From the NCBI GenBank assembly GCA_964536305.1, contig CAZHVY010000013.1, positions 3,645 through 67,644 of the forward strand: a stretch of DNA of 64,000 nt, given 5' to 3'. Both the position numbers and the translations under genes were made by a program. Of the stretch, positions 14,692-31,259 are shown piece after piece. Origin of the DNA: an uncultured Geobacter sp. (GTDB lineage: Bacteria > Desulfobacterota > Desulfuromonadia > Geobacterales > Geobacteraceae). Positions within the stretch are counted from its first letter, which is position 1, and each line of letters opens with the position of its first letter. The notes under the pieces were generated by a model. The model had not been told where the DNA came from, did no database searches, and worked only from the letters and a program-made list of their open reading frames with translations.

Positions 14692-16713
14692 ATGGCGATG
14701 AAAAAGACTTCGATACTGGCGGTTGCGCTCCTTGCTTCCCTGAGCTTCGGTTTTGACTGGACCTTCGGCCTGTCCGGCAAATGCACCCAGGCGCGAAAGA
14801 TCATCGATACTGTCGGTGAAAAAAAGAGTGACGAAGAAAGGGAGCAAGCGGAGAAAAAGGCGCTGGAGCTCTGTTCCGACGGGGCGGCCGGCCTGTATGT
14901 CAAGGGATTGCGGCATGAGCGCGCCGGCAGGCTGGACGATGCCATGCAGGAGTACCGGGCATGCCTGAAGGAAGACCCCTCTTTCACGCGCGCCAGAGGC
15001 AATCTGGGCAATATCTATTATCAGAAGGGGATGTACGACGAAGCGGCCTTGGAGATGACAAAGGCGCTCTCGGACAAAGAAGACCCCCGCTACCACAAGG
15101 GTCTTGCCCGCATCTACGCCGAAAAGAAGATGTATCCCCTTGCCGTGTACCATTACGGTGAGGCCTTGAAAGGGCTTCCTGACGACGCATCCCTCCACAC
15201 GGGCCTGGCCGATATCTATCGCGGGCAGGGGATGCAGGACAAGGCCGGAGAGGAATATTTCAAGGCTCTGTCCATCAACAGCGCCGACACGGATGCGCGC
15301 CTGGGCATGGCGGCCCTTTACCTGGATACCAACGAGGCGGACAAGGCCCTTTCCGAGCTGAAACGTCTCCAGGCCGTGAACCCCAGGAACAAGAGGATCC
15401 ATCTCCTTCTGGCCGAGGCTTATGAAAGAAAGGGCGACCTCAGGTCCGCGGAGTACGAATACCTTCTCGCCGGCAAGAACCGCTCCGTGGAGCTCATGGA
15501 GCAGATGCGCAAGGGCAACGCCTACCTTCAGTCCGGCGATTACGGCAAGGCCATAGCCGAGCTGGAGACGGCCCTCAAGGAAAAGCCGGGAGACCTGGAG
15601 ACCCTGAAGAAGCTGGGCGACGCCTACATGGCCGCCGGACGGGACGATGAAGCCATCAGTTCTTACAAGGAGGCGGTCTTCCTGAAAGGGGGCGCCGCTG
15701 GCGTTCACCGCAATCTGGGAATACTGTACGAGAAAAAAGGTCTTCTGGATGAGGCCGTCGTGGAATACAGGGAGGCCCTGCGCGATGAACCGGAAAGCGC
15801 CGAGACCCGCCAGTTGCTGGCCGACATCTACATGCTTCGTGGCAGCGTTCCCCAGGCCATCGAGCAATACCGGGAGGTCCTGCGGGAAAAAAAGGGGTCT
15901 CCCCGTCTCCATTACCGTTATGCCAGAGCGCTGGCCCTTAACAAAAACTTCAAGGAGGCCATGGGAGAGTACCTCACGGCCGTGCGCCTCGACCCGGACA
16001 ACGCCGACGCGCGCCGGGATCTGGCCAACCTCTACCGCAGGAACGGGCTTGATGAAGAAGCCGAAAGACATTACAAGGAAGCGCTCCGTGTAAGGAAAAA
16101 CGACGCGGATTCCAGGAACAACTTGCTGGCCATATATGTGAAGAAAAAGGATTTCACGGAAGCCATCGCGCTTCTCAGGGAGAATACGGAGCTTGCCCCC
16201 GAAGACCCGTCCAACTTCTACAAGCTGGGCATCCTCTATGAATACAACAAGGACTACGACACCGCCGTTACCGCCTTCAAAAAGGCGCTGGACCTGAAGT
16301 CGGACCACGCCAAGGCCTTGAACGCCCTGGGACGCGTCTATATGAAGACCGGCCGCGCCGACGAGGCGAAACAGGTTCTGGAGGCGGCGAAAAAGGCTGA
16401 TCCGCGCATGGAAGAAACCACCGTGCTCCTCGGCAACGTCCGTGACGAGGTGGCGCCGGAACCGGTCGTCTACCGGAAGAGGTCGTACCGTTCCAGCGCG
16501 AAAAAGCGGAGCGAGCGCGTTAAGGTATCGAAGAAGGGGAAAAAGTCCCGCCGGGTCTCAGTTGATGGGGACGAGGGCGTTTCCAAGGGGAAAAAGGGAA
16601 AGAAATCTGCCGCTGCTTCGAAAGGGAAAAAGGGGAAATCCTCAGCCAAGGCGGAAAAGTCTTCAAAGGGAGGAACAGGGAAGAAGTCTTCCAAGGGGAA
16701 GAAAAAGAAATGA
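14692..16713 (+). CDS. secreted multi-TPR protein with extremely Lys-rich C-terminal tail
   Basis: Signal peptide MAMKKTSILAVALLASLSFG; more than 12 TPR-like repeats (recurring A..Y..AL...P...A pattern); last ~80 aa are KKGKKS-type repeats. Confidence 0.8.
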   Translation: MAMKKTSILAVALLASLSFGFDWTFGLSGKCTQARKIIDTVGEKKSDEEREQAEKKALELCSDGAAGLYVKGLRHERAGRLDDAMQEYRACLKEDPSFTRARGNLGNIYYQKGMYDEAALEMTKALSDKEDPRYHKGLARIYAEKKMYPLAVYHYGEALKGLPDDASLHTGLADIYRGQGMQDKAGEEYFKALSINSADTDARLGMAALYLDTNEADKALSELKRLQAVNPRNKRIHLLLAEAYERKGDLRSAEYEYLLAGKNRSVELMEQMRKGNAYLQSGDYGKAIAELETALKEKPGDLETLKKLGDAYMAAGRDDEAISSYKEAVFLKGGAAGVHRNLGILYEKKGLLDEAVVEYREALRDEPESAETRQLLADIYMLRGSVPQAIEQYREVLREKKGSPRLHYRYARALALNKNFKEAMGEYLTAVRLDPDNADARRDLANLYRRNGLDEEAERHYKEALRVRKNDADSRNNLLAIYVKKKDFTEAIALLRENTELAPEDPSNFYKLGILYEYNKDYDTAVTAFKKALDLKSDHAKALNALGRVYMKTGRADEAKQVLEAAKKADPRMEETTVLLGNVRDEVAPEPVVYRKRSYRSSAKKRSERVKVSKKGKKSRRVSVDGDEGVSKGKKGKKSAAASKGKKGKSSAKAEKSSKGGTGKKSSKGKKKK

Positions 16714-17841: not shown

Positions 17842-18684
17842 TTATCGACCGGAAGGTAAAAATATCTCCCCACGTCCATGGGGTAGCACACCCAGCTTTG
17901 CTCCCATGTCGAGGAGCGTCTTCGCCGCCTTTTCTCCCACTCTACCCGGGTCCAGGGAGAATTCGTTTACATAGAGCCTGATGTGGGCCGCCCTCGCCGT
18001 TGTGTCCAGCTCTCGCGCGTGAAGCGCCACGTAATTATCGGTCTCCGCAGGACCTCGCAGCGCATACTCCGCGCTGGCGCGGATGATGTCGTTCACCTTG
18101 GAGAGCATGGCCGGTCCCAGGGAGCGGCGCGCGGCGATGCCGCCCAGGGGGATGGGAAGGCCGGTAAGCTCCTCCCACCACTCTCCCAGGTCCACGACCT
18201 TGTGAAGTCCCAGGGCCTGGAAGGTGAAGCGGGATTCGTGGATGATAAGCCCGGCGTCAACCGTCCCCTGGGCGACCGCCTCGATAATCCCGTGAAAGGG
18301 GAGGGCGCCTATGCCCCTGATCTCCGGGTCGAAGAGTCTTAGCAGGAGCAGGGCGGTGGTGTGGAGGCCGGGGACGGCGATCTGCGCCCCGCGCAGGGAC
18401 ATCGGCGTCAGCCTGTCCCTTGCCACCACCAGGGGACCGCACCCCTTTCCCATGGCGCCGCCGGCCCGGAGCATCACGTAGCGTTCCCGGATGTGGGCAT
18501 AGGCGTGCCAGGAAACCTTGCACACATCCAGGGTGTCTTCCATGGCTAGCCGGTTGAGGGTCTCCACGTCTTCTATGCGCAGCCGGAAGTCCGTGGAAGA
18601 GTTGTCCAGCAGTTTATTGGCGAGGGCATGAAAGATGAATGTATCGTTCGGGCACGGGGAGAATCCCAGGGTAAGGCTTTTCAT
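17842..18684 (-). CDS. mqnD: 1,4-dihydroxy-6-naphthoate synthase MqnD (futalosine pathway)
   Basis: N-terminus MKSLTLGFSPCPNDTFIFHAL is typical of MqnD. The ATG at 18684 overlaps the mqnB stop (ATGA). The Arg/Gly-rich N-terminal extension of the track ORF lies inside mqnB. Confidence 0.8.
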   Translation of the reverse strand: MKSLTLGFSPCPNDTFIFHALANKLLDNSSTDFRLRIEDVETLNRLAMEDTLDVCKVSWHAYAHIRERYVMLRAGGAMGKGCGPLVVARDRLTPMSLRGAQIAVPGLHTTALLLLRLFDPEIRGIGALPFHGIIEAVAQGTVDAGLIIHESRFTFQALGLHKVVDLGEWWEELTGLPIPLGGIAARRSLGPAMLSKVNDIIRASAEYALRGPAETDNYVALHARELDTTARAAHIRLYVNEFSLDPGRVGEKAAKTLLDMGAKLGVLPHGRGEIFLPSGR

Positions 18685-19406
18685 GTGGTCAGCTCCCTGA
18701 TGAAGAGCTCGAGAAAGCCGGCCGCGGTCTTGACGGCAAGGGGAATGTCCCATCCTGATACATCCCTGTCTTCCACGTGGTTGCTTATCCCCCGCACCTC
18801 CAGGAGGTCGACGCCGAAGCGGGCCGCCACAAGGGCCGCCGCTGCCCCTTCCATGTTTTCGCAGATGGCGCCGTAGCGCGCGCGCAGTTCCTCTCCCCGG
18901 ACAAGGGTTCCGCTGCATGCGGCGACGGTCAGAAAGCTTCCGGCGTGCAAGGCGATTCCCCGGGCAGTTGCTGATTTGCGCGCCAGGTTGAGGAGCGGGG
19001 TTGATAGGGGATAGTCGTTGAATGAGGGGACGCCGTTCCGTTCCAGCAGAGGCAGTCCCATGTATCTCATGTCACGCACCCCTTCGGCGAGGAGTACCCC
19101 GGTATCGGCGAATATCTCCCGGGTCGCTACAGCCAGGTCGCCTATTCGTAGTCCGCTTCCGGGGTAGGCTCCGGCGCAGCCGGTCATGACGAGGAAACGG
19201 GGCGAAAAAACATGAAGAAGAAGAGATGTGGCGGCGGCGCAGTTGGCTGCGCCTATGCCGGTGGCGGCGAACAGGAGTCTGTGGTTATTATGGGTGGATA
19301 TGAGGACCTCCCACGGCAGGGCGCATCCTTCCGGCGACGCGTCGAAGGCCTTGGCCAAGCCATTGATTTCGCCAGGCGTGGCGGAGATGATTAGAGCCGT
19401 TACCAT
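18681..19406 (-). CDS. mqnB: futalosine hydrolase MqnB (PNP/MTAN nucleosidase fold)
   Basis: Nucleosidase-family motifs (TGIGAANCAAAT, MTGCAGAY, ENMEGAAAA), ~240 aa, coupled to mqnD. Confidence 0.7.
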   Translation of the reverse strand: MVTALIISATPGEINGLAKAFDASPEGCALPWEVLISTHNNHRLLFAATGIGAANCAAATSLLLHVFSPRFLVMTGCAGAYPGSGLRIGDLAVATREIFADTGVLLAEGVRDMRYMGLPLLERNGVPSFNDYPLSTPLLNLARKSATARGIALHAGSFLTVAACSGTLVRGEELRARYGAICENMEGAAAALVAARFGVDLLEVRGISNHVEDRDVSGWDIPLAVKTAAGFLELFIRELTT

Positions 19407-19896
19407 TTTTGTATTCCCTTGTATATGTTAAGGTACGGTAAATATTTGTTTGACATGCAGCCAGAGTCTGGCATGATACAAACTTCAAGTTCCTTGAATT
19501 CCGGAAGGATTTCGCCAAGCGATCCGCTTCATGGCGCATCACCGATTTTTCAGTGTCCCATATTATAGCAACGCATCTTTTCTTTCAGAATAAAATAAAA
19601 CCATATTTTATTTTTCTATGAAGAAGGCGAAATATATTCATGCAATTTCAGTTGGATGCGAAGCTCCCGCGAAATATGCGCTGCATACGGACTGATTATT
19701 GCATACAAGATATGCATCCTGAATGAGCTTTTCCGTTTTCACTATAAAGTAAATGACCCGCATCTAATCTCTGGGCGCTCCTGAGTGGTTCCAGGGAATC
19801 ATGGGTACATTGTATGTGTGTAGCTTAACAAAACTTGATGTCTCTTGAGGTTGATTCATAAATGCCCAGCCTTTGTAACTCGGGGTAAATTTTTTA

Positions 19897-19925
19897 TTGA
19901 CTTTTTAATCCTTTGAAGCTATTAA
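19897..19925 (+). promoter_or_regulatory. candidate sigma-70 promoter for the S-layer-like gene, implying a ~255-nt leader
   Basis: -35 TTGACT (19897-19902), 17-nt spacer, -10 TATTAA (19920-19925). The downstream leader contains hairpins ccagacgtctagtctgg and tagcctttcgggcta. Confidence 0.35.
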
Positions 19926-20187
19926 CATCACAATAAAATAGAATATTCTATGCATCTTCTGTGCTTGCCGGATCAGCCAGACGTCTAGTCTGGCTAGAGA
20001 CCGTATGGGAAAAGCGGGATTTTTCAGACTGTCTGACGTTTTAAACAGGACAAGTATGATTCCTGCAGAAAAACATGAAAGGGGGTGAATAGCTTTTCGT
20101 GCTGCCATTCGCTGTGAATGGCGAAATTTGTTTTCACTGTAGCCTTTCGGGCTACGCACTTTTTTGAGACGAAGGAGGAATTGTTAG

Positions 20188-22677
20188 ATGAAGAAATTCT
20201 TGTATTTCTTGCTGGCTACTGCAATGCTGGCAACGTTCGGTTGTACCGGCGACGAGAATACTTATTCCGTCGGCAGCCCGAATCCTAACGAATTGATGCC
20301 GAAGGGCACTGTTCAGGGCATTCTGAAGGATGCCTGCACCAATGAGCCCATTGCCGGCGCAGTCATCGACATCGGCGTGGCACAGGCGACAACCAGCGAA
20401 ACCGGCCAGTACGTGATGCACAACGTGCCGGCTACCAGTTTTGTCTCCCCCACGGCCCTGACCCTGTTGTCAGGCTACTCAGGCGAGTATTCGGCAACCA
20501 TCGACCTGCGTAAGGCGAAGAACGTGGTTACGGGTAAAAACAATTATCCGCAATTCTCATATTCCGAAGTAAGCGTTGCTTTCTCCTCTCTGGCAGAAAC
20601 CAGTCTGGCCAAGGCAGGGATCGCGAGCAATCCGAATGGCGCAATAGCGGCCGCCGGCGCTGCGGGAAGCGCTTCTAGCGTGACTGAGGTATCCGCGTCC
20701 GTTTCCACTACCAATGCTACTAATCACGATACTCCTGTTACCCAGTTGGGCAACGGTGATTTCGACTTCTACGTTGGTAAAATTACGACCGCCATCAGTG
20801 GCGCTGCTGTCACCGCTGATATGAAGAACGTGCCTGACGGCTATGCCGTACTGCTTTATTCTCTGGGCAACAACTGGACCGGCAATTCCTCAACCGGCGC
20901 AGAAGGTCACCTCATTGCACAGACAACCACCAAAAATGGCCGTTTCACATTTGATAAGCTGGAAGCCAAGCAGTACTACAGGGTAGTTGTTGTCGATACC
21001 GCCGATGGCGTAGCGACGATGACTGGCCAAGAAATAAAAAGGACCAACTGCGAAGGCACCACTTGGTTCGGCGTGCAGGATGGCGACCCCATCATAGTAC
21101 GTTCTACCGACGTAATGTGTCCGTTCATCACCAAGGTTTCTCCGAGCAACTGGGCCGATCTCGACCCTGCAACCGCCGGCGGCATCAAAGTCGTCTTCAC
21201 CTTCAGCGAGCCTATCAAGGCTAATGCCCATATCACCGGCAGGGGCCTCACCGCTTCCGATCTGGGTGGACTGTACAGCCTCGTTTATGTGTACTATGAA
21301 GGCAATAAGGCTGGCTTCAACAAATCCGGTAACATAGCTCATTCTCTGGCGTGGAATGATGATATGACGGAACTGACCGTTACTATCAACCCTGTTGGCA
21401 AAGCCAGTGTTTACTCCGTATCGCTCGGCGATGGCGCTCAGGCATTGCTTAAGGACGCAGCTGGTAACGAACTGAGCGCTGGCCTCGGCGCACACAACAT
21501 TCCTTGTCTGCCGTTCAGAGACGCAGACTTCGTGTTTGCGGGTGAAACCGTCAAAGCTAACATCTTCCAAGACAAGCATAATGTACCGGTCCTCAAAGAC
21601 AAGAAGCTGATCAAGCAGGTTCACTTCACCACCTACGGCGCTTCTGCTGCTGGCCAGCCGACACTGAAGCTTACCGCGACGCCTTACGACTTCGACGACA
21701 ACATCCAGTTCAGCTGGACCGCGGCAACTGGCGCCAAGTATTATAACCTGTACTGCGCCACGAACCAGGTGTGGAGCAACGGATCCAACGTTCATACTAC
21801 CGCGAAGGTCAATGCCAACCCGATTACCGATACGACTTTTGCATACGATCCGCAGGCGCTGCCGCAATTCAACTTCGTGGAAAACAACTCCATCAAGCTG
21901 ACTTATGACTGCTATGTTGTGGGCGTTGACGCTGACGGTATTGAAGGCAAGTCCAGCAACATAGTGACTGCTTCTGACAAAGTGGCGCCGAAAATTCTCG
22001 GTTCAACTCTCGCCGCTGCCATCCAGGCCAAGGCAGATTTCTTCACCATCAGCTTCAGCGAGCCGATGGTTAAGTCCGAAGTTCAGGATCCGGCCAACTA
22101 TACCCTCAATGCTGCTGCTTTCACCGCTACTCCGGTGACTATCTCCAGCATTTCTTACAACGAGAACACCCGCATCGCTACTATCAGGCTCTCCGGGGCA
22201 CTCGAAAAGATTCAGATGGGTGCGATTGGAACCGGTGCGAACGGCATCGCGGAATCCGTCAGGGTTGGCACGGACGACCAACCCATTCCGCTTGGAAATG
22301 GTCTTGCTAATGCAGTCTGCGTGACCGCGGCGCAAAATCACGTTGTAGCTACCGTAGCTCTGGGTGATGATGTCCAGCGTATAGCCGTAGGCCAGACAGC
22401 AAATGCCGGTCAGGTAATTATCGACGCAGGCGCTGATGGCATCTGCCAGACAACAGCAGCTGCTGTGACAGAAGTTCAGAACATAGCAGTAGGCAGAGGC
22501 TTGGCAAACCAGATTGAGATTACCGCCGGTGTTGGCTTCACACTGCAGTCAACTCCTGCCGGTGACGACAAGCTGACCGACGCGCCGGTGTTCATTACCG
22601 TAGCAACGCATGACATCGCCGGTAATTCACTCAACAGCAAGAATAACGCAATCAGGACGGATGGCGTCATCGAATAA
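20188..22677 (+). CDS. large surface lipoprotein, S-layer-like (carboxypeptidase-regulatory-like N-domain plus SbsA/Ig-like domains)
   Basis: Lipobox MKKFLYFLLATAMLATFGC with a strong AAGGAGG SD. GTVQGILKDACTNEPIAGAVIDIG...TGQYVMHNVP is a CarboxypepD_reg-like pattern. Two P-x-V..P...FSEP(I/M) Ig-like signatures (VSPSNW..VVFTFSEPI; APKILGS..FFTISFSEPM). The composition is Thr/Ala/Gly/Asn/Val-rich and the codon usage is atypically A/T-rich. Confidence 0.6.
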   Translation: MKKFLYFLLATAMLATFGCTGDENTYSVGSPNPNELMPKGTVQGILKDACTNEPIAGAVIDIGVAQATTSETGQYVMHNVPATSFVSPTALTLLSGYSGEYSATIDLRKAKNVVTGKNNYPQFSYSEVSVAFSSLAETSLAKAGIASNPNGAIAAAGAAGSASSVTEVSASVSTTNATNHDTPVTQLGNGDFDFYVGKITTAISGAAVTADMKNVPDGYAVLLYSLGNNWTGNSSTGAEGHLIAQTTTKNGRFTFDKLEAKQYYRVVVVDTADGVATMTGQEIKRTNCEGTTWFGVQDGDPIIVRSTDVMCPFITKVSPSNWADLDPATAGGIKVVFTFSEPIKANAHITGRGLTASDLGGLYSLVYVYYEGNKAGFNKSGNIAHSLAWNDDMTELTVTINPVGKASVYSVSLGDGAQALLKDAAGNELSAGLGAHNIPCLPFRDADFVFAGETVKANIFQDKHNVPVLKDKKLIKQVHFTTYGASAAGQPTLKLTATPYDFDDNIQFSWTAATGAKYYNLYCATNQVWSNGSNVHTTAKVNANPITDTTFAYDPQALPQFNFVENNSIKLTYDCYVVGVDADGIEGKSSNIVTASDKVAPKILGSTLAAAIQAKADFFTISFSEPMVKSEVQDPANYTLNAAAFTATPVTISSISYNENTRIATIRLSGALEKIQMGAIGTGANGIAESVRVGTDDQPIPLGNGLANAVCVTAAQNHVVATVALGDDVQRIAVGQTANAGQVIIDAGADGICQTTAAAVTEVQNIAVGRGLANQIEITAGVGFTLQSTPAGDDKLTDAPVFITVATHDIAGNSLNSKNNAIRTDGVIE

Positions 22678-22692
22678 CGTCTTCTGACGAAA

Positions 22693-22722
22693 CCTCACGC
22701 AGAGGAAATCCTCTGCGTGAGG
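22693..22722 (+). terminator. intrinsic terminator 1 after the S-layer-like gene
   Basis: Perfect 13-bp stem cctcacgcagagg-aaat-cctctgcgtgagg followed by a T-rich stretch. Confidence 0.7.
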
Positions 22723-22775
22723 AGTTCTTGTTGACACAAAAGCTTCTCAGAAATGAGTTTTTCTTTGGTATTCTT

Positions 22776-22806
22776 GAAAGAGCGATGGATTAACCATCGC
22801 TCTTTC
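22776..22806 (+). terminator. intrinsic terminator 2 (tandem)
   Basis: gaaagagcgatgg-attaa-ccatcgctctttc followed by gtgtattttgctttgttt. Confidence 0.6.
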
Positions 22807-22925
22807 GTGTATTTTGCTTTGTTTATCACATGGCACATCTTCGCGGCGCAGCACAGAACCAGTCATTCAGCCCTGTCCATGTCGTTTTGCATGCAGGAAT
22901 TCAGCAATAGATAAGGATACGACCC

Positions 22926-24218
22926 ATGATCCTTTCACTCATCAGATTCGCATCAATATTTTCTCTGCTTTTGTCTTTGTTTGTATTATCTTCCTGCGGT
23001 GGTAACGGTTCGTCGGATCCCTCTCCTCCGGTTGAGGGCAAAAAATGGACCGTAATGGTCTACCTGGACGCGGACAACAATCTGGGTACGGCATCCATGC
23101 TGGACCTTGAGGAGATGCAAACGGTCGGTTCTTCCGCAAATGTTACCTTCATCGTCCAGCATGACACTAACGGCGGCAATACGAAGCGCTACAGGGTAGA
23201 AAAAGGTTCATTGACCCTCCTTTCCGATCTGGGCGAGCTGGACATGTCCGCGGCCTCTACCCTGCGCGATTTCGTCAGATATTCCGCGACCGCCTATCCA
23301 GCGGATCATTACGCCTTGATTATCTGGAATCACGGCCAGGGATGGAAGAACGCACTTCAGGGCAGCAGGGTTAAATCAATCTTTAACGACGTGGACAACG
23401 GTAATCCTTCCAATTTCCTTTCCAACTACTACGTGGCTGCGGCCCTGGCGGAAGCGGAGTCCGCTGCCGGATTCAAGCTCGATATCCTTGGCATTGACGC
23501 CTGCGAAATGGCTGTTCTCGAGGCTGCCTACGAGTTCCGGAACGTGGCGAAGATCCTTGTTGCTTCCCAGGAATTGGTTGATTACCATGGTTGGTACTAC
23601 AGCGATCTGTTTGCGCGTATGGTGAACAACCCGACCATCACCCCGAAGGAGTTGGCCAAGGCGATGGTGCTGAGCTTCAAGAAGTTTTACGAAGATGGAG
23701 GTTACAAAACCCAGACCATCAGCGCCTTTGCTCTGGATCCTCTTTATTCAAACGATGGCGTTACCAGTATAGGTACTCTCGCACAGGCGGTAAACGGCAT
23801 GGCGCTCAGACTCACTTCCAGCATGGCCGACACGGCCACACGTACCGCAGCTCTGAAATTGTTGACCGATGTGCGTGCGCAGGTGCAGGAGTTTGACCCG
23901 GATGTGCTTCCCGCAACCTATGTGGATCTTATACACCTGAGCCGACTGATTGATGGCGCTGGTTCTTCCGTTGAAACAACATACAACAAGCTGCTTCTCG
24001 GAGAATACCATGGTTCGGAAAGGCCGAACGCACATGGCCTGTCCATCGTTTTCTACGATCGTTCAAGTCCTTACGACAACGTTGTCTATGATACCGACTA
24101 TCGCGGATATAATGAAAGTACCGGAACAGGAAGCAGAATTGCATTCCTCAATCAGTATCAATGGGATGATATGCTGCACACCTATTTTGGTCTTCAATAT
24201 CCCCTGAAACCGAACTGA
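22926..24218 (+). CDS. clostripain-family (peptidase C11) cysteine protease lipoprotein
   Basis: Lipobox LFVLSSC; WTVMVYLDADNNL; catalytic His context IIWNHGQGW; catalytic Cys context LGIDACEMAV. Confidence 0.8.
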   Translation: MILSLIRFASIFSLLLSLFVLSSCGGNGSSDPSPPVEGKKWTVMVYLDADNNLGTASMLDLEEMQTVGSSANVTFIVQHDTNGGNTKRYRVEKGSLTLLSDLGELDMSAASTLRDFVRYSATAYPADHYALIIWNHGQGWKNALQGSRVKSIFNDVDNGNPSNFLSNYYVAAALAEAESAAGFKLDILGIDACEMAVLEAAYEFRNVAKILVASQELVDYHGWYYSDLFARMVNNPTITPKELAKAMVLSFKKFYEDGGYKTQTISAFALDPLYSNDGVTSIGTLAQAVNGMALRLTSSMADTATRTAALKLLTDVRAQVQEFDPDVLPATYVDLIHLSRLIDGAGSSVETTYNKLLLGEYHGSERPNAHGLSIVFYDRSSPYDNVVYDTDYRGYNESTGTGSRIAFLNQYQWDDMLHTYFGLQYPLKPN

Positions 24219-24249
24219 TCGTGCGTCACTCATGATTTTGCGAGTAAAG

Positions 24250-24278
24250 AAACACCCGCTTCGGCGGGTTTTTCTTTG
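24250..24278 (+). terminator. intrinsic terminator after the C11 peptidase gene
   Basis: acccgc-ttcg-gcgggt followed by ttttcttt. Confidence 0.6.
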
Positions 24279-24334
24279 GAGCAACGATGCCGAATGGCAC
24301 TTACAGGTTTTCAACTTATCGTCTTCTAAGGGTC

Positions 24335-24350
24335 TGGCGCTGATCTCGCA
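24335..24350 (+). promoter_or_regulatory. sigma-54-like -24/-12 element upstream of gspC
   Basis: TGGCGC-tgatc-TCGCA against the consensus TGGCAC-N5-TTGCA, with correct GG/GC spacing, 113 nt upstream of the gspC ATG. Confidence 0.3.
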
Positions 24351-24462
24351 GTTCGTGCCGGCATACAATGCTGGGACAAACAAGTCCCGGCTTTTCCCTT
24401 GCCAGTATTTCCATTATTGTTTATAGTTACGAAAATTTTATCATCTCTAATCGGACTGTTTA

Positions 24463-25323
24463 ATGGATAAGAAAATCAAGGCGCTTAATATTGGCATCAC
24501 AGTTCTGATACTCATAATTCTTGCCATGATTGCCTCCGATATTATCTCCAACCGGCTTTCGCGGGCCTTTCCCCTGATGGCGAACAAGAACCAGACACCT
24601 GAACTGGCGAGTGGCAGCGCGGATCTTACCACGTTTTCTCCCATACTGGAAAAGGGTCTGTTCGGCAAGGCGACCAAAGGCGCCCTGACGCCCATAACAC
24701 GTGTGGAGAGCCCGGCGGCGGTTTCGCCTGGCGACCTGCTCCTGATCGGTACCTCGGTGGGCTCCTTTCGTGAGACATTCGCCTTGATCCAGCGCCAGAG
24801 CACCCATGAAGAGAAGGTCTTCCGTTTAGGTGACAAGGTCTTCGAGATCGGCCCTCTCCTTACGGTGGCGAGAAATATGGTCGAGATCCAGAGCGGCCCC
24901 TCCCGCATGAAACTTTCAGCCCCTACGGCCGTGCCGGGCGTGGCGGGGGGTGGCGCCATAGGAACTTCGCCGCCGCAGGGCGGCTTGGCCAGCAAGGTGG
25001 GCGCTGGGAGCTATGTCATCGATCAACGCGCCCTCTCCGCCATCCTGGACAACCCCGCTAAGGCCATGACCGATGCCCGACTGCTTCCCAACTCGAAAGA
25101 CGGAAAGGTGCAGGGGTTCAACATTTCGGAGGTGAAGCCTGGCGGTCTCTTTGGCACCATCGGCATGAAAGACGGAGACACCCTGCTGAGGATAAACGAT
25201 TTCGCCATTGACTCTCCGGATAAGGCCATGCAGTCTTTCATGTCTCTCAAGGGCCAGAGCAGCATCAGGCTTGACCTGATGCGCGAAGGCCGCCCCCTGA
25301 CGCTCAATTACGACATCCGATGA
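24463..25323 (+). CDS. gspC: type II secretion system protein GspC (N-terminal TM, C-terminal PDZ)
   Basis: TM segment IGITVLILIILAMIA; PDZ-like GFNISEVKPGGLFGTIGMKDGDTLLRINDFAI; position directly before gspD. Confidence 0.8.
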   Translation: MDKKIKALNIGITVLILIILAMIASDIISNRLSRAFPLMANKNQTPELASGSADLTTFSPILEKGLFGKATKGALTPITRVESPAAVSPGDLLLIGTSVGSFRETFALIQRQSTHEEKVFRLGDKVFEIGPLLTVARNMVEIQSGPSRMKLSAPTAVPGVAGGGAIGTSPPQGGLASKVGAGSYVIDQRALSAILDNPAKAMTDARLLPNSKDGKVQGFNISEVKPGGLFGTIGMKDGDTLLRINDFAIDSPDKAMQSFMSLKGQSSIRLDLMREGRPLTLNYDIR

Positions 25324-25386
25324 TGCGCGCTGAAAATGCCGCACGGCATCCGAACCGCGCCTGATGAAAAAAGCTGGAGGTTTTCA

Positions 25387-27339
25387 TTGAAAACTATCGC
25401 TCGAACCATTTTGGCAGCCGCACTTCTTATCCTGGCCGCCATGCCCGTTCCGGCCTCGGCAAAGGGCATTGTGCTGAATTTCAGCGATGTGGATATTTCT
25501 ACCATGGTGAAGTTCATTAGCGATCTGACCGGAAAGAACTTCATCCTCGACGACCGCGTGAAAGGGAAGATCTCCGTTTTTTCCCCTTCCATGCTGTCCA
25601 GGGAAGAGGCCTTCAACGTGTTTACTTCAGTTCTGGACCTGAAAGGGTTTTCCGTGGTCCAGACGGGCAGGGTCTACAAGATAGTGCCCACCTCGGCCGC
25701 CAAGCAGTCAGGAATGAAGATACTATCCGGCACAGATCGGATTCCGGTGAACGAGACGTATATGGCTAGAGTTATTCCTCTTTCGCGCATTCCATCTCAG
25801 GAAGCGGCCAACTTTCTGCTGCCGGTGGTTTCCAAGGACGGCTACGTCGCCTCCTTTGGGCCAGCAAACACCCTGCTGGTGGTGGATTCGGCCCTGAATA
25901 TCCAGAAGGTTCTGGACATTATCAAGACCATTGACGGTGACCTGCGGCATCACGGCGCCGAGCTGGTCTTCCTTAAGCATGCCTCGGCTGACAACGTGGC
26001 TAATATCGTGCGCGAGTGGATCTATGGCAGGGACCGCTCCAATAAATCCGGTATCCAGTCCGTCCAGAGCCAGACATCATCCGGCCAGAGCGCTGGTGTT
26101 GGCGGTCTCCTGGTTCCCGACAACCGCCTCAACGCCGTGATAATATTCGGCAGTGAACAGGACAAGGCGGATATCAAGCAGTTTATTGCCATGCTGGATA
26201 TAACGCCTCCCACCTCCAGTAGCAAGATCAATGTATATTATTTGGAAAACGCCGATGCTACAGATGTAAGCAAGGTGCTGGACACTATGATCAAGGGCAC
26301 CGGCAGCTCTCCTCAAGGGAGCTCGGCCCAGCAGCAGGTTGCATTCGAGGGTTCCAGGATATCAATCGCTCCAGACAAGGCCACCAATTCCATTGTGATC
26401 ATGGCTGCGCCCAACGATTACCAGAACTTGGCCAGGGTAATCCAGAAACTGGATCGCCGTCGCCGACAGGTGTTTGTCAAGGCCCTGGTGGCCGAGGTCT
26501 CCATGGATAAGGCGCGCGAGATCGGCATGCAGTTGGGCGTGGGCGCGGCAGGGACGGATGGCACCATCGCAGCGGCCGGGCTTCTGGACCCGTTCAGTTT
26601 TATCGGCGCCTCCAACGCGCAGCAGCAGTCGGTCATCAAGATACTGGAAGGCTTCAGCAAGAACGTGAATTTCTCCGCCGTACTCAAGCTTCTGGACGAG
26701 AACGGCGCGGTGAATGTCCTGTCCACACCAAATATCCTTACCTCGGACAACAAGGAGGCGGAGATCTTCGTGGGCGAGAACGTGCCGTTCGTTTCTTCCA
26801 CCACCCTTTCCTCCACCGGCCTCTCCCAGCAGTCCGTGGAAAGGAAGGACACCGGTATCACGCTGAAGATTACCCCCCAGATCACCGAGGGCGAGTACAT
26901 CAAGCTGGACATCTATCAGGAGATATCGGCGGTCAAGGACAGCAAGGGTCAGGCCACCGACCTGGTGACCACCAAGCGCTCCGCCAAGACCTCGGTGGTG
27001 GTGAAGGATACCGACTCCGTGGTTATCGGGGGGCTGATCCAGACCCGCGACGAGGAGAATATCGACAAGATCCCGTTCCTGGGTGATATCCCGATTCTGG
27101 GCTATCTGTTCAAGACCAAATCCACAGAGCGCAAGAAGACGAACCTGATAATCCTGCTCACACCGCGCATCATCCGGAACGCGGCCGACATGGCTGATGT
27201 GTCCAGGAATCAGACATTCCAGTTCGAATCCCTTGTTCCGGCGGAAACGCCGATCGATCTCAACAAGGAGTTGCGGGGAGGCGCACTTCCTCCTGCCGCG
27301 GGCTCGAACGGGAAAGAGGAACTGAAAGGAAAGCCATGA
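25387..27339 (+). CDS. gspD: type II secretion system secretin GspD
   Basis: N0/N1-type domains (VLNFSDVDISTMVKFISDLTGKNFILD) and secretin core ending IPFLGDIPILGYLFK. The TTG at 25387 has a GGAGG SD 6 nt upstream and yields a clean signal peptide. The alternative ATG at 25336 has no SD. Confidence 0.93.
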   Translation: MKTIARTILAAALLILAAMPVPASAKGIVLNFSDVDISTMVKFISDLTGKNFILDDRVKGKISVFSPSMLSREEAFNVFTSVLDLKGFSVVQTGRVYKIVPTSAAKQSGMKILSGTDRIPVNETYMARVIPLSRIPSQEAANFLLPVVSKDGYVASFGPANTLLVVDSALNIQKVLDIIKTIDGDLRHHGAELVFLKHASADNVANIVREWIYGRDRSNKSGIQSVQSQTSSGQSAGVGGLLVPDNRLNAVIIFGSEQDKADIKQFIAMLDITPPTSSSKINVYYLENADATDVSKVLDTMIKGTGSSPQGSSAQQQVAFEGSRISIAPDKATNSIVIMAAPNDYQNLARVIQKLDRRRRQVFVKALVAEVSMDKAREIGMQLGVGAAGTDGTIAAAGLLDPFSFIGASNAQQQSVIKILEGFSKNVNFSAVLKLLDENGAVNVLSTPNILTSDNKEAEIFVGENVPFVSSTTLSSTGLSQQSVERKDTGITLKITPQITEGEYIKLDIYQEISAVKDSKGQATDLVTTKRSAKTSVVVKDTDSVVIGGLIQTRDEENIDKIPFLGDIPILGYLFKTKSTERKKTNLIILLTPRIIRNAADMADVSRNQTFQFESLVPAETPIDLNKELRGGALPPAAGSNGKEELKGKP

Positions 27340-28898
27340 GCCCGGCACTGGATATGGAATCGCTGGCCGCCCGTCTGGGACTCCCTTATCTGGACCGGAT
27401 TGAGGACAACGCAGTGGATGAGGCCCTTCTGGCTCGACTCCCGCTGGCCTTCGCCCGCGCCAATCACGTCATTCCCCTGCGGGAACAAGAGGGGAGGCTC
27501 CTGGTTGCCTGCGGCGATCCCGCTAATTTCGGGGCTCTGGATGAGATCAGGGGTGTATACGGAATGCCCGTTGATATGGTGGTCACCAATCCCCAGTCCG
27601 TGCTGGAGGCCGTTAACCACCTGTATTCCCGTCTGTCCGGCTCGGCCCAGGAAGTGGTGGAGGAACTGGAAGGAGAGGACCTTTCCACCATCGCCACCGA
27701 GCTCAGCGAGCCGAAGGACCTCCTGGACCTGACCGACGAGGCGCCGGTTATTCGCCTGCTTAATTCAATACTTTTCCAGGCGGTGAAGGAAAGGGCCAGC
27801 GACGTCCATATCGAGCCCTACGAGCGGGAAGTGGAGGTGCGCTTCCGCATTGACGGCATCCTCTACAAGATGCTCACCCCGCCCAAGGTTGTCCAGGAGG
27901 CGATGATCTCCCGCGTGAAGATCATGGCCGGCCTGAACATCGCCGAGAAGCGCCTTCCCCAGGACGGACGCATCCGGGTCGTGGTGGCGGGGCGTGACGT
28001 GGACATCCGCGTTTCCATCATCCCGACCTTTTACGGAGAGCGGGTGGTCCTCCGTCTCCTGGACAAGAAGAAGGGGCTCATCTCCCTGGAAGATATGGGC
28101 GTGTCCGCCTCCGGCGTGAAGACCATGGAACGTCTCCTGGCCCGCAGCAACGGCATCATCCTCGTCACCGGCCCGACCGGCAGCGGCAAGTCCACGACCC
28201 TTTATGCCGCCCTGAACCGTCTCAACTCTCCGGAGAAGAATATCATCACCATCGAGGACCCCATCGAATACCAGTTGAAGGGGATCGGCCAGATACAGGT
28301 GAATCCCAGGATCGACCTGACATTCGCCAGCGGCCTCCGCTCCATCCTCCGCCAGGACCCGGACATCATCATGGTGGGCGAGATCCGGGACGCCGAGACC
28401 GCGGAAATAGCCATCCAGGCCAGCCTCACCGGACACCTGGTCCTTTCGACCCTGCATACCAATGATTCGCCAACCGCCGTCAGCCGTCTCGCGGACATGG
28501 GCATCGAGCCGTTTCTCGTGGCCTCTTCCCTGTCGGCCGTTCTCGCCCAGCGGCTTGTGAGGGTGATCTGCCCCTCGTGCCGCGAGGAGTACGTTCCGGA
28601 TCGCTCCTATCCGGGCATTGACCTGCCGCCCAGGCTCTACCGGGGCAGGGGTTGCGATGCCTGCTTCGGTCTGGGGACCCTGGGCCGCACCGGGATCTAC
28701 GAGCTTCTGCTGATAGATTCGGAGATCTGCTCCATGATCATCCGGAGGGCGCCCGCCGGTGAGATCAAGGAATACGCCGTTTCCAGGGGGATGAAGACCC
28801 TGCGGGAGGATGGCCTGGAAAAGGCGGCCGCCGGTATTACCACCATCGAGGAAGTAGTGAGGGTTACGCAGGAAGATTATGCCGACCTTTCGTTATAG
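27336..28898 (+). CDS. gspE: type II secretion ATPase GspE
   Basis: Walker A GPTGSGKST; Asp/His boxes; tetracysteine CPSC...CDAC; ATGA overlap with gspD. Confidence 0.97.
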   Translation: MSPALDMESLAARLGLPYLDRIEDNAVDEALLARLPLAFARANHVIPLREQEGRLLVACGDPANFGALDEIRGVYGMPVDMVVTNPQSVLEAVNHLYSRLSGSAQEVVEELEGEDLSTIATELSEPKDLLDLTDEAPVIRLLNSILFQAVKERASDVHIEPYEREVEVRFRIDGILYKMLTPPKVVQEAMISRVKIMAGLNIAEKRLPQDGRIRVVVAGRDVDIRVSIIPTFYGERVVLRLLDKKKGLISLEDMGVSASGVKTMERLLARSNGIILVTGPTGSGKSTTLYAALNRLNSPEKNIITIEDPIEYQLKGIGQIQVNPRIDLTFASGLRSILRQDPDIIMVGEIRDAETAEIAIQASLTGHLVLSTLHTNDSPTAVSRLADMGIEPFLVASSLSAVLAQRLVRVICPSCREEYVPDRSYPGIDLPPRLYRGRGCDACFGLGTLGRTGIYELLLIDSEICSMIIRRAPAGEIKEYAVSRGMKTLREDGLEKAAAGITTIEEVVRVTQEDYADLSL

Positions 28899-30090
28899 CG
28901 CATTCAGGAGCGATGGGTCTCCAGTCACCGGTGTCCTCGAAGCGTCCAATTCCTTTGAGGCGCGGGCCGTTCTGAAGAAGGAAGGACTGTTTCCAAGGGA
29001 ACTGGCCGAGGCGGCAGCGTCCGATAAGCGGAAGGCGAAGAGTTTCCTCCGCAAGGGCGTTCCTCTGCCGGAGCTGGCTCTCATGACCCGGCGTCTCTCC
29101 ACCCTGCTGGGTTCTTCCGTGCCCGTGTACGAGGCCATCTCGACCCTTTACGATCAGGAAGGGGAGGGGGAGCTGAGGGAGGTGCTGGGCCGTGTCCGCA
29201 CCCGGCTCGCCGAGGGAGCGAACCTGGCCCGCTCCCTGGCCGAGGAACCGGCGGTGTTCAGCGAGAGCTATGTCAGCATGGTGGCCGCCGGCGAGGCGAG
29301 CGGCGCCCTGGAATCGATTCTGGATCGCCTGGCGGATTTTCTGGAAGATCAGGAGGCGGTCAGAGGCAAGGTAATGACGGCGCTTGCGTATCCCGCCCTC
29401 ATGGTTGTGGTGGGGACCGGGGTGATGCTCTTCCTTCTGGCCTTCGTCATCCCCAAGATCGTCGTCATCTTCGAACAGAACAAGGCGGCCCTGCCACTTA
29501 TTACGGTGATGCTTATCAAAACCAGTACCCTGCTGCGCACAGGGTGGTGGGCGATACTCATTGTCGCGGGCGGCCTCGTCTATTGGTATCGCAAGCTCGT
29601 CAGGCGGGAGACCTTCCGTTTCCGGCGTGATTCCTGGCTCCTCCGGATACCCCTCATGGGCCCTCTTCTGGCAAAGCTCACCCTTTCAAGGTTCTCGAGG
29701 ATCCTGGGTCTCCTCATGGCCAGTGGCGTGCCGGTTATCCGTGCCCTGGAGATCACCGGCGAGGTGGTGGTGAACCGCAGATACCGGACGGCCCTCGAGG
29801 AGGCCCGCGTGGAGCTGGCGGAGGGGGGTAGGCTTTCCACATCCCTGCGGGACAAGGAACTGTTTCCGCCTCTTCTGGTTCATATGGTTGCGGTCGGCGA
29901 GCGGGGCGGCACCCTTGAGGCCATGCTGGCAAAGGCAGGCGCGGCCTTCGAAAAAGAATTCGTAGCGGCTGTGACCCGTGTCATGTCGCTTCTGGAACCC
30001 CTGCTGGTACTGGCCATGGGCGTTGTGGTAGGGACCATGGTGATTGCGGTGCTCCTGCCTATCTTCCAGTTGAATCAATTGATTAAATAA
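28879..30090 (+). CDS. gspF: type II secretion inner-membrane platform protein GspF
   Basis: 403 aa with the duplicated GspF/PilC domain architecture and 3 TM segments. It overlaps the end of gspE. Confidence 0.93.
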   Translation: MPTFRYSAFRSDGSPVTGVLEASNSFEARAVLKKEGLFPRELAEAAASDKRKAKSFLRKGVPLPELALMTRRLSTLLGSSVPVYEAISTLYDQEGEGELREVLGRVRTRLAEGANLARSLAEEPAVFSESYVSMVAAGEASGALESILDRLADFLEDQEAVRGKVMTALAYPALMVVVGTGVMLFLLAFVIPKIVVIFEQNKAALPLITVMLIKTSTLLRTGWWAILIVAGGLVYWYRKLVRRETFRFRRDSWLLRIPLMGPLLAKLTLSRFSRILGLLMASGVPVIRALEITGEVVVNRRYRTALEEARVELAEGGRLSTSLRDKELFPPLLVHMVAVGERGGTLEAMLAKAGAAFEKEFVAAVTRVMSLLEPLLVLAMGVVVGTMVIAVLLPIFQLNQLIK

Positions 30091-30091
30091 T

Positions 30092-30234
30092 GTAACTATT
30101 CAATATATAGAATTTTCTGTCATTCCCGAGGCTGTTAATCGGGAATCCAGAAGGGTTTTCATTAGAAAGCCATGGATGCCCGACAAGTGCACTCGGGCGT
30201 GACAAATAGAATTTGCGAGATCATCAATAGTTAC
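30092..30234. repeat. GTAACTATTCA-bounded element containing two short hairpins
   Basis: gtaactattca (30092-30102) and tcaatagttac (30224-30234) flank attcccga-N9-tcgggaat and gcccga-N9-tcgggc hairpins (30117-30205). Same end motif as at 16716-16943. Confidence 0.7.
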
Positions 30235-30269
30235 TAGATAAATAAGCCTTTGCAAAAGTGCTGAAAAAT

Positions 30270-30474
30270 ACTCCCCCTCCCTTGATGGGAGGGGGTTGGG
30301 GGGAGGGTGAAAAGGGGCGGAATGCGATATTCCGGCAAGTTTCCCCCTCTCCCTGACCCTCTCCCACCAGGGGAGAGGGGACTTCCCCTCACCCGGCCTT
30401 CGTCCACCCTCCCGCTGGGAGAGGGTTCGCGCTTTTCCCCTCGCCCTGTGGGAGAGGGTCAGGGGTGAGGGGTG
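30270..30474. repeat. cluster of family-B G/C palindromic units in the gspF-gspG gap
   Basis: ctccccctcccttgatgggaggggg; ccctctcccaccaggggagaggg; cccctcacccggccttcgtccaccctcccgctgggagagggt...gggagagggtcaggggtgagggg (full unit 30382-30476). Confidence 0.8.
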
Positions 30475-30511
30475 ACAGTTGTAAACGCATCACAACAGAA
30501 GGAGGTTTTTC

Positions 30512-30958
30512 ATGAGGAATGCACTGAGGAGCAACGCCGGTTTTACCCTTATTGAAATAATGGTCGTCATCGTTATCCTGGGCATGCTGGCGGTGCTGGT
30601 GGGGCCGAAGATCATCGGCCAGACCGATGACGCCAAGATCGCTGACGCCAAGGTCCAGATAAAGAACCTGGAGACGGCGCTGAAGCTCTACAAACTTGAC
30701 AACGGCGTCTATCCCGGCACCGAACAGGGCCTTCAGGCCCTGGTGGAGAAACCGGGTACGGGTGTTATTCCAAAGAAATACCGGGATGGTGGCTATCTGG
30801 AAAGCAAGAACGTTCCCAAGGATCCGTGGGGTAACGACTATATCTATCTCTCCCCCGGCGAGCACGGCGACTTCGACCTTTCCTCCCACGGGCCGGACGG
30901 CGTGAGAGGTGGGGAAGGCAAGAACGCGGCGGATATCGAGAGCTGGAATCTTCAGTAG
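30512..30958 (+). CDS. gspG: type II secretion major pseudopilin GspG
   Basis: Prepilin leader plus GFTLIEIMVVIVILG; the GspG-specific KDPWGNDYIY motif; GGAGG SD. Confidence 0.95.
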   Translation: MRNALRSNAGFTLIEIMVVIVILGMLAVLVGPKIIGQTDDAKIADAKVQIKNLETALKLYKLDNGVYPGTEQGLQALVEKPGTGVIPKKYRDGGYLESKNVPKDPWGNDYIYLSPGEHGDFDLSSHGPDGVRGGEGKNAADIESWNLQ

Positions 30959-31012
30959 ATGTGTCCCGTTCAACATGAATGCAGCGCTCTGTAACGCTGA
31001 TTCTTTTGAGTC

Positions 31013-31192
31013 TAACCCCTCCCAACCTCCCCTTCTCAGGGGAGGCTTAAAGGCTTCCCTTGAGAAGGGGGGACTGAGGGGGGGTGGTGTTACGTGTTGG
31101 TCCCTGTTCTCCCCCCTCGACCGGCCTTCGGAGAGGTCCAGGTTTTCACCCCTCGCCCCTTGTGGGAGAGGGGCGGGGGAGAGGGGGAAAAG
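31013..31192. repeat. family-A unit (31013-31100) plus family-B unit (31107-31192) in the gspG-gspH gap
   Basis: The A unit is nearly identical to 54918-55002. The B unit reads ccggccttcgg...cccctcgccccttgtgggagaggggcggggg. Confidence 0.8.
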
Positions 31193-31259
31193 AGCCCTCT
31201 TGACTTCAGATCGCAATTTGCATAACCGTCCTGAGTGGCGGACAGGGGATAACCACTCT

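Follow-up and report, generated by a model that had tools for sequence, protein, structure and literature searches.

We analysed a stretch of 64,000 nucleotides from an uncultured Geobacter sp. (referred to here as the window) and concentrated on positions 19407-24462, where two lipoprotein genes, which we call gene 1 and gene 2, lie between mqnB and gspC, directly ahead of a type II secretion system (T2SS) operon. Gene 1 encodes a long lipoprotein of repeated beta-sandwich architecture and gene 2 a cysteine peptidase of the C11 family. The features on which the rest of this account depends are as follows.

The locus and its conserved gene pair

18681-19406, minus strand: mqnB, futalosine hydrolase (TIGR03664, E = 1e-61)
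19407-19896, no strand assigned: unconserved A+T-rich spacer (G+C ~0.40) between divergent mqnB and the gene-1 promoter
19897-19925, plus strand: putative sigma-70-type promoter of gene 1 (TTGACT, 17 nt, TATTAA) with an A/T tract on its 5' side
19932-20187, plus strand: structured 5' leader of gene 1, ~255 nt, conserved in 7 Geobacteraceae loci
20077-20089, plus strand: internal Shine-Dalgarno-like sequence AAAGGGGGTGA, ~100 nt 5' of the real gene-1 start
20103-20123 and 20138-20156, plus strand: leader hairpins from folding prediction
20171-20178, plus strand: ribosome-binding site of gene 1, GAAGGAGG, within the leader
20188-22677, plus strand: gene 1, an 829-residue lipoprotein (open reading frame, profile and structure prediction)
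22693-22722 and 22775-22807, plus strand: two terminator- or attenuator-like hairpins after gene 1 (hairpin prediction)
22926-24218, plus strand: gene 2, a 430-residue C11 (clan CD) cysteine-peptidase lipoprotein (PF03415, E = 9.1e-37)
24254-24278 (stem 24254-24269), plus strand: intrinsic terminator after gene 2, ACCCGCTTCGGCGGGT followed by a T-run, conserved in 8 loci
24399-24427, plus strand: putative promoter of the gsp operon (TTGCCA, 17 nt, TATAGT), 10 of 12 consensus matches
24463-36445, plus strand: complete T2SS operon, gspC-gspN (Pfam and NCBIfam profiles)

Across genome and metagenome collections, about 17 distinct lineages have a C11 gene directly 3' of a gene-1 relative and in the same orientation; their G+C content ranges from 0.38 to 0.68, and their annotations read Geobacteraceae, Desulfuromonadales, Smithella, Nitrospirota/Nitrospiraceae and 'Deltaproteobacteria'. 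Reverse look-ups that started from C11 led to a lipoprotein matching the gene-1 profile just upstream in five of five contigs (E = 1e-181 in L063, 2e-54 in L064, 1e-142 in L065, 2e-222 in L066 and 1e-145 in L067; loci from other genomes bear such L numbers throughout). The view of an earlier note on this DNA that the two genes belong together is thus borne out by adjacency across several phyla, and the genomic context indicates that gene 1 and C11 are a conserved, functionally coupled two-gene cassette. The carriers found are all uncultured metagenome-assembled genomes (MAGs), in a scan made with one narrow peptide pattern, and because of that narrowness absence from cultured Geobacter species is not established.

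The same note had described the region as an A+T-richer insert, possibly acquired horizontally. Its proposed check by windowed G+C content confirms the compositional deviation: the 5,056 nt between mqnB and gspC have a G+C content of 0.501 against 0.581 for the whole window, which is the minimum among all sliding 5,056-nt windows of the 64 kb and lies below every one of 489 non-overlapping windows (minimum 0.554, mean 0.587, standard deviation 0.017). The deviation extends, as claimed, to the intergenic stretch at 19407-20187 (781 nt, G+C 0.40) and to both genes, which are the two lowest of 47 in G+C: gene 2 ranks first (G+C 0.510; G+C at third codon positions, GC3, 0.587; z = -3.0) and gene 1 second (G+C 0.537, GC3 0.612, z = -2.0).

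The idea of horizontal transfer is essentially refuted. The note's second check, on whether orthologues of the pair are syntenic with gsp genes, shows the pair adjoining gsp genes both in Geobacteraceae and in Smithella-like loci. At least seven distinct Geobacteraceae loci share the order Lon ... mqnA-mqnB, gene 1, C11, gspCDEFG (L001, L003, L009, L010, L014, L016 and L063, with L010 being a same-species locus 97% identical to the window), and the locus is syntenic in every related Geobacteraceae MAG found. Identity to L001 and L003 is 65-68% for gene 1 and 67-70% for C11, compared to 55% for mqnB, 64% for mqnA, 70% for gspC, 75% for gspD and 88% for gspE, so that the pair's divergence falls within the range of its flanks (55-88%), which speaks against a recent foreign insert. 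In L001 and L003 the orthologues of the pair have a GC3 of 0.71-0.78, similar to their neighbours. A repeat scan around the region found no flanking direct repeats, a tRNA scan found no tRNA gene, and no mobility gene occurs among the neighbouring open reading frames scanned against Pfam and NCBIfam, a scan that did not cover the window exhaustively. Among the marks of a genomic island, deviant composition is present; mobility marks and patchy presence were not found. A recently acquired island between mqnB and gspC would accommodate the lowest G+C content in the 64 kb and the GC3 of gene 2, which otherwise lacks explanation (0.59 vs 0.76 in the flanks of this genome; orthologues elsewhere match their own flanks), but such an island is highly improbable given the identical gene order in at least seven MAGs, the flank-like divergence of the pair, the flank-like GC3 of the L001 and L003 orthologues, the lack of repeats, tRNA or mobility genes in the scans made, and a codon skew that is specific to gene 1 in six of six loci. 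We conclude that the pair is vertically inherited and is not a recent foreign insert.

Two neighbours of the region deserve mention. Alongside mqnB, upstream of gene 1 and on the opposite strand, lies an mqnA-like gene whose longest open reading frame (17842-18918, 358 residues) overlaps mqnB by ~240 nt; because its orthologues have only 279-285 residues, translation probably begins near 18681. Between Lon and a DPBB/RlpA-like gene, positions 14692-16713 encode a 673-residue secreted protein without a Pfam domain that is a conserved neighbour across the Geobacteraceae loci; its homologues in L016 and L063 have a lipobox (C-GFDWTFG), and the window's copy reads S-FGFDWTFG, without the Cys.

Gene 1 and its transcription

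Gene 1 has the strongest codon bias among the long genes of the window (Karlin B = 0.403; mean of the others 0.297, standard deviation 0.063). GGA and GGG make up 0.09 of its Gly codons compared to 0.40 in flanking genes, GCT and GCA 0.57 of its Ala codons compared to 0.14, and it also favours GTT/GTA, TTC, GAA and CGT. This pattern is kept in all six Geobacter-type loci whatever their GC3, alleles of only 31% identity included, with GGA and GGG accounting for 0.08-0.13 of Gly codons in gene 1 vs 0.40-0.50 in the flanks, and it is not seen in C11. We infer that the skew reflects translational selection on a highly expressed gene. The length and structure of the leader, together with a conserved promoter close to consensus, join the codon skew of the six loci as indirect signs of high expression.

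The promoter hexamers were assigned by reading the sequence. The block that holds them, ATTGAC(A/T)TTT(T/A)AATCCTTTGAAGCTATTAACATCA, is nearly invariant in 7 loci in which neighbouring proteins are just 55-75% identical, and the last ~290 nt upstream of gene 1 as a whole are likewise nearly invariant in seven loci, where neighbour proteins differ by 25-45%. What the earlier note had termed a long non-coding leader (19407-20187) therefore divides in two: its last ~290 nt are a conserved promoter and 5' untranslated region, and its first ~490 nt are an unconserved spacer that aligns only with L010, not with L001, L003, L009, L014 or L016, and that has no Rfam match and no tRNA. The leader proper folds with a z-score of -3.16 relative to shuffled sequence, and compensatory changes occur in 9 of 54 predicted pairs across the 7 loci. 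An Rfam scan of 17-27 kb, together with a scan of 19400-20200 under a laxer filter, gave chance-level matches only, and a riboswitch or other known RNA in the leader was accordingly rejected. A leader peptide was rejected as well, since the short open reading frame after the internal Shine-Dalgarno-like site varies between loci in both length and sequence. Shine-Dalgarno-like mRNA stabilisers are known in Bacillus, and the leader could serve as an mRNA-stabilising or regulatory element.

The statement that each gene has its own terminator agrees with the terminator-like hairpins found after both gene 1 and gene 2. The first stem after gene 1 covaries among relatives, its sequence shifting while pairing is kept, and the second (GAAAGAGCGATGG / CCATCGCTCTTTC) is almost invariant; weak Rfam matches to SpF25 and mir-4766 at 22734-22811 correspond to this second hairpin and were discarded. 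The gspC start lies 244 nt past the gene-2 stop, in line with the spacing noted earlier, and the promoter segment within this gap, CTTGCC...TTTATAGT, is conserved in 8 loci. Because gene 1 and C11 end in hairpins or a terminator and gspC has its own promoter, there are probably three transcription units, with C11 plausibly made at a low level by read-through. In L001 (14000-14600) and L003 (14050-14550), the gap between C11 and gspC holds 400-500 nt of extra DNA that is not in the window; it resembles repetitive extragenic palindromes or miniature inverted-repeat transposable elements and carries G/C-rich palindromes such as CCCCCTCTTATGCTAAGAGGGGG.

The mature gene-1 product is an acidic protein of 84 kDa (isoelectric point 4.85), and its precursor contains nine cysteines. 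Its computed composition, rich in Ala, Thr, Gly, Val, Ser and Asn, is close to the Thr/Ala/Gly/Asn/Val-rich one reported before, and the lipobox and both FSEP(I/M) motifs read from the sequence at that time are also present. The lipobox (MKKFLYFLLATAMLATFG, ending in LATFG ahead of Cys19) recurs in 165 of 192 gene-1 relatives; in a set of 173, 97% retain Cys19. The carboxypeptidase-regulatory and Ig-like domains are supported at the level of the family, whereas the window's own protein scores under the Pfam gathering cut-offs for both CarboxypepD_reg (residues 41-84, 27.4 bits against 32.3) and Big_5 (residues 597-673, 18.2 bits against 23.6). Among 38 relatives, CarboxypepD_reg is found in 21-22, Big_5 in 16 (E <= 0.001) and SpaA/SdrD_B in 5-6, and in the L011 homologue Big_5 scores 28.6 bits where the first FSEP motif lies. 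The two F(T/S)FSEP(I/M) motifs are encoded by a 19-nt direct repeat (21197-21215 and 22049-22067, 89% identical), which reflects an internal Big_5 duplication within gene 1.

An AlphaFold2 model of gene 1 (mean predicted local distance difference test score, pLDDT, 78) has the form of a chain of beta-sandwich domains behind a disordered tether (residues 17-34), with disordered inserts at 136-180 and 441-461. Domain boundaries were read from the secondary structure of this model, and the layout is approximate:

Residues 39-134: CarboxypepD_reg-like
Residues 136-180: disordered
Residues 194-306: prealbumin-like
Residues 312-430: Big_5/SbsA-Ig
Residues 474-595: Fn3-like
Residues 597-673: Big_5
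Residues 675-829: variable C-terminal region

A fold search with the model returned 221 matches at E <= 0.001, all of them generic Ig/Fn3 chains, and the S-layer protein SbsC appeared only at rank 42, with a template-modelling (TM) score of ~0.1, and at rank 48; the fold search does not separate an S-layer protein from an adhesin or a protein of another role. A search of solved structures with the gene-1 family profile gave only marginal cohesin/Fn3 matches (E >= 0.004), and no Pfam domain of an S-layer anchoring module (SLH, CWB2, or type I secretion/lipopolysaccharide-binding) was found in gene 1 or its 38 relatives. The description of gene 1 as S-layer-like has the Big_5 (SbsA Ig) domains at family level in its favour; the lack of a known anchoring domain and the generic fold matches leave a true S-layer role unproven. 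Among the basic residues of gene 1 only Lys374 is near-invariant (94% of 173), and it lies in a loop that the model predicts with low confidence; because this lysine is conserved also in relatives without an adjacent C11, it is at most a candidate cleavage site for the protease. Clustered at 50% identity, the family comprises 339 clusters at E <= 1e-30 and 1,722 at E <= 1e-10, and searches for an NCBIfam model match or an informative source name for it returned none.

Gene 1 varies between close relatives in a manner that its neighbours do not. Between L001 and L003, flanking proteins are 96-100% identical and gene 1 just 80%, with a mosaic profile in which the N-terminal half is ~100% identical and the C-terminal part 26-68%. 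L014 and L016 carry, at the same locus, a gene-1 allele only 31% identical to that of the window, compared to 61-64% for C11 and 75-89% for GspD and GspE, and in L063 the gene-1 slot holds a 650-residue family member (profile E = 1e-181). The alleles of L014, L016 and L063 all keep a closely similar signal peptide. Diversifying selection or cassette exchange typically leaves mosaic divergence of this kind in exposed surface proteins, and the pattern suggests that gene 1 is a fast-evolving gene of the surface type.

Gene 2 and the secretion operon

The earlier description of gene 2 as a C11 lipoprotein with WNHGQGW and IDACEM motifs and a lipobox is correct on every count. The protein matches PF03415 (Peptidase_C11) with 127.9 bits against a cut-off of 25.8 (E = 9e-37); that it is clostripain itself was ruled out by a TIGR02806 score of 65.7 bits against a cut-off of 550. 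Its relatives in the PDB are 6n9j, 9cip, 6mzo and 3uws, and the solved Bacteroidales C11 structures resemble it only distantly (E from 1e-12 to 1e-5). His136 (WNHGQGW) and Asp191-Ala-Cys193 (IDACEM) align with the motifs of 6n9j; the catalytic pair His136 and Cys193 and the S1 residue Asp191 are all present. In PmC11, His133, Asp177 and Cys179 hold the corresponding roles, autoactivation occurs at Lys147, and C11 enzymes cleave after Lys or Arg (PMC4850288). Lys150 of gene 2 lies 14 residues past His136, the spacing at which Lys147 of PmC11 follows His133, and the PmC11 light chain (3uws_A) aligns to gene-2 residue 142, out of ~150. Since His136, Asp191, Cys193 and Lys150 are all intact, gene 2 is predicted to be an active protease that cleaves after Lys or Arg. 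Its lipobox (...LLLSLFVLSS ahead of Cys24) has a counterpart in every cassette-adjacent C11 homologue and in 90 of 120 members of the C11 family.

The T2SS operon downstream comprises the following genes, all on the plus strand, with the gspH start inferred from the position of its N_methyl motif:

24463-25323: gspC
25336-27339: gspD
27336-28898: gspE
28879-30090: gspF
30512-30958: gspG
~31200-31835: gspH
31832-32185: gspI
32157-32810: gspJ
32807-33733: gspK
33718-35064: gspL
35061-35609: gspM-like
35606-36445: gspN

GspN is of the 'Leptospira type' (TIGR04411, E = 6e-67, 226 bits against a cut-off of 50) and is not recognised by Pfam, GspL matches TIGR01709 with 117 bits against a cut-off of 65, and the 182-residue GspM-like reading frame is marginal (Pfam T2SSM, E = 0.03). 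In Geobacteraceae the cassette is followed by gspC-N. Smithella-like loci have a different arrangement, in which gspC, an AAA protein, a TPR protein, gspD, gspE, gene 1 and C11 follow one another (L066); L029 has gspD-gspE-gene1-C11, and L021 is a variant with C11, a beta-propeller gene, gspD, gspE and gene 1. GspD and GspE of the Smithella-like loci exceed their NCBIfam cut-offs.

Surface display of the lipoproteins InvL and PulA by the T2SS depends on GspN as well as on a motif behind the acylated Cys that is rich in Gly/Ser or Asn/Asp (PMC12802150). This sorting motif (positions P2'-P8') was defined only in Proteobacteria, namely Acinetobacter, Burkholderia and Shewanella, which bears on the comparison that follows: over the same positions, Gly, Ser, Asp or Asn occupy 7 of 7 in gene 2 (C-GGNGSSD) and 3 of 7 in gene 1 (C-TGDENTY). 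The mean fraction of these residues is 0.72 in the C11 family and 0.59 in the gene-1 family against 0.47 in control lipoproteins (n = 35, cassette neighbours included), an enrichment that is only suggestive because the control is small and contaminated by Gly/Ser/Asp-rich lipoproteins adjacent to cassettes. With gsp genes adjoining the pair in two arrangements, GspN encoded and a T2SS-like composition after the lipobox, the link between cassette and T2SS that the earlier note had drawn appears plausible.

Other lineages have extra genes beside the cassette, which encode a beta-propeller protein, a Big_5 protein, small lipoproteins and a TSP3-repeat protein; several of them have Gly/Ser/Asp-rich segments after the lipobox, which hints at a larger surface module. 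Their positions are:

L021, 4019-5212
L028, 5020-6261
L032, 4646-7591
L064, 9290-9913
L065, 11358-12803
L011, 13839-16142

Proposed function of the cassette

We favour, with moderate confidence, a reading in which the cassette consists of an abundant, diversifying surface lipoprotein and a dedicated C11 partner, both exported by the adjacent GspN-containing T2SS in Geobacteraceae. Gene 1 would be an abundant acidic 84-kDa lipoprotein, expressed from its own strong, conserved promoter and long structured leader, held at its N-terminus by a lipid and a flexible linker and extending outward as a chain of about six beta-sandwich domains, whose distal C-terminal part would be swapped between strains by recombination. 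Gene 2 would be a co-anchored C11 protease, predicted to cleave after Lys or Arg, that acts as a dedicated partner in maturing, trimming or releasing gene 1, and because gene 1 ends in hairpins far less of the protease would be produced. The GspN-containing T2SS would most likely carry the two lipoproteins, already folded, out of the periplasm and onto the external face of the outer membrane, so that gene 1 and C11 are probably displayed on the cell surface by the adjacent T2SS. What the analysis shows directly is the anatomy of the locus, its conservation, the linkage of the genes, a codon bias of the expression type, intact catalytic residues and the presence of GspN; surface exposure, T2SS dependence and the status of gene 1 as a C11 substrate are what we infer from these combined features.

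Several observations weigh against this reading. At least eight loci (L005, L011, L032, L035, L052, L057, L064 and L065) have no T2SS gene within 10 kb of the cassette, and the genes called in L067 include none. A terminator stands between gene 2 and the gsp operon, which is served by a promoter of its own, and the repeat-like DNA of L001 and L003 adds a further 400-500 nt. The enrichment for the sorting motif is modest, measured against a small and contaminated control, and concerns a motif known from Proteobacteria only. No C11 adjoins the shorter gene-1 relatives of Gallionella, Nitrosomonadales and Moraxellaceae MAGs, and the low GC3 of gene 2 is not accounted for by expression bias. Finally, localisation, cleavage and secretion are all predictions from sequence.

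Of the other explanations we considered, a true S-layer, in which gene 1 self-assembles into a lipid-anchored paracrystalline lattice and C11 matures the precursor as Cwp84 does for SlpA, is unlikely, although much of the evidence fits it: the high-expression codon bias, strong promoter, long structured leader and terminator directly after the gene; the acidic isoelectric point of 4.85 and the Ala/Thr/Gly/Val/Ser/Asn-rich composition; the SbsA-type Ig (Big_5) domains; the replacement of alleles at one fixed locus while the 5' end is conserved; and a near-invariant Lys374 in a flexible loop as candidate site for an enzyme that cleaves after Lys or Arg. Bacterial S-layer proteins do not, however, typically have an N-terminal lipid anchor or nine cysteines, the fold matches are generic Ig/Fn3 with SbsC only at rank 42, SLH or another known anchor was not found in gene 1 or its 38 relatives, Lys374 is conserved also where no C11 is adjacent, and lattice formation is not a property that can be read from sequence. 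The pair might instead serve foraging, with C11 as a nutritional protease, secreted or on the surface, and gene 1 as an accessory binder of substrates or particles, the two sharing an external substrate and C11 not cleaving gene 1. Degradative enzymes are common among T2SS cargo, some lineages have additional lipoproteins, Big_5 or TSP3 proteins beside the cassette, and the C11 lipoproteins of Bacteroidales are surface proteases that act on other proteins (PMC11169675). We nonetheless rate foraging as rather unlikely, since the strong expression bias is confined to gene 1 and fast distal diversification is more readily expected of an exposed protein with a structural or antigenic role than of a conserved substrate binder. 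The carriers are, moreover, annotated as metal-reducing, syntrophic and nitrite- or iron-cycling, and we know of no such lineages that are proteolytic specialists.

A still less probable alternative, which we would assign only a slight chance, holds that both proteins are periplasm-facing outer-membrane lipoproteins unrelated to the T2SS and that their adjacency to gsp is a lineage-specific accident. Most cassette loci with long flanks lack gsp genes nearby, and the gsp operon is a separate transcription unit, as this explanation would have it; it does less well with T2SS genes that adjoin the cassette in two gene orders and two classes of Desulfobacterota, with a hypervariable distal domain that suggests external selection, and with the presence of GspN and a post-lipobox composition that fits T2SS lipoproteins. 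Going beyond our favoured reading of a surface lipoprotein with a dedicated protease, the cassette could represent a new kind of Gram-negative coat, that is, an abundant lipid-anchored multi-Ig layer displayed by a GspN-containing T2SS, matured or shed by C11 (possibly at Lys374), widespread in uncultured anaerobes and independent of Cwp84/SlpA; we consider this rather doubtful.

Comparison with known systems delimits what is familiar here. PulA of Klebsiella and InvL of Acinetobacter baumannii resemble the cassette proteins in their lipobox, in the presence of a T2SS with GspN and, suggestively, in a Gly/Ser/Asp/Asn-rich stretch after the Cys; the PulA gene adjoins gsp genes, as the cassette does here, and InvL is built of Ig-like domains. 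This likeness is one of shared features, and the hosts here, Desulfobacterota and Nitrospirota, are outside the groups in which the sorting rule was defined. Unlike PulA and InvL, the latter of which is an adhesin (PMC12802150), gene 1 has codon and promoter signs of very high expression and is paired with a dedicated protease. Fragipain and DpnA/DpnB of Bacteroidales are outer-membrane-exposed C11 lipoproteins that cleave after Arg or Lys and thereby activate specific partners (PMC11169675), and gene 2 is like them a C11 enzyme made as a lipoprotein; they belong, however, to another phylum and take a different export route, Bacteroidota having their own lipoprotein export signal, and their known partners are secreted toxins where here the candidate partner is a multi-Ig, probably surface-exposed lipoprotein.

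The Cwp84/SlpA system of Clostridioides difficile combines an abundant surface-layer protein, a dedicated cysteine protease and a variable surface-protein cassette, and the likeness is one of concept, a surface protein with its own cysteine protease. Cwp84 is a papain-like C1A enzyme whereas gene 2 belongs to C11 of clan CD, the C. difficile host is Gram-positive and uses CWB2 anchoring with neither lipoprotein nor T2SS, and an S-layer role of gene 1 is unproven. With SbsA and SbsC of Geobacillus, gene 1 shares a beta-sandwich chain, an acidic isoelectric point and, at family level, Big_5 domains, but the structural match is non-specific (rank 42, TM ~0.1), and those proteins are anchored by a domain that binds cell-wall polymers, whereas gene 1 would be held by a lipid and has CarboxypepD_reg and Fn3 domains in addition.

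In the literature on Geobacter T2SS and clostripain and on Geobacter or Smithella S-layers, we found no published description of the gene 1/C11 pair. As far as these searches show, the conserved pairing, its breadth in uncultured anaerobes, the expression signature and the recurrent association with the T2SS are new, while the components are each of known kinds. The gene-1 family is sizeable yet uncharacterised, its 339 clusters (E <= 1e-30) lacking a curated family model, and gene 1 appears to be a major, fast-evolving surface component of organisms annotated as metal reducers, anaerobic-digester syntrophs and groundwater Nitrospirota. The fixed pairing of gene 1 with C11 offers a candidate substrate-protease pair in a family for which, to our knowledge, few physiological substrates are known. 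The cassette is also a candidate natural cargo of the little-studied Geobacteraceae T2SS, and as such probes the reach of the GspN route and its sorting motif beyond Proteobacteria. If this picture is true, gene 1 would shape the adhesion of these bacteria to minerals, electrodes and partner cells, as well as their susceptibility to phages.

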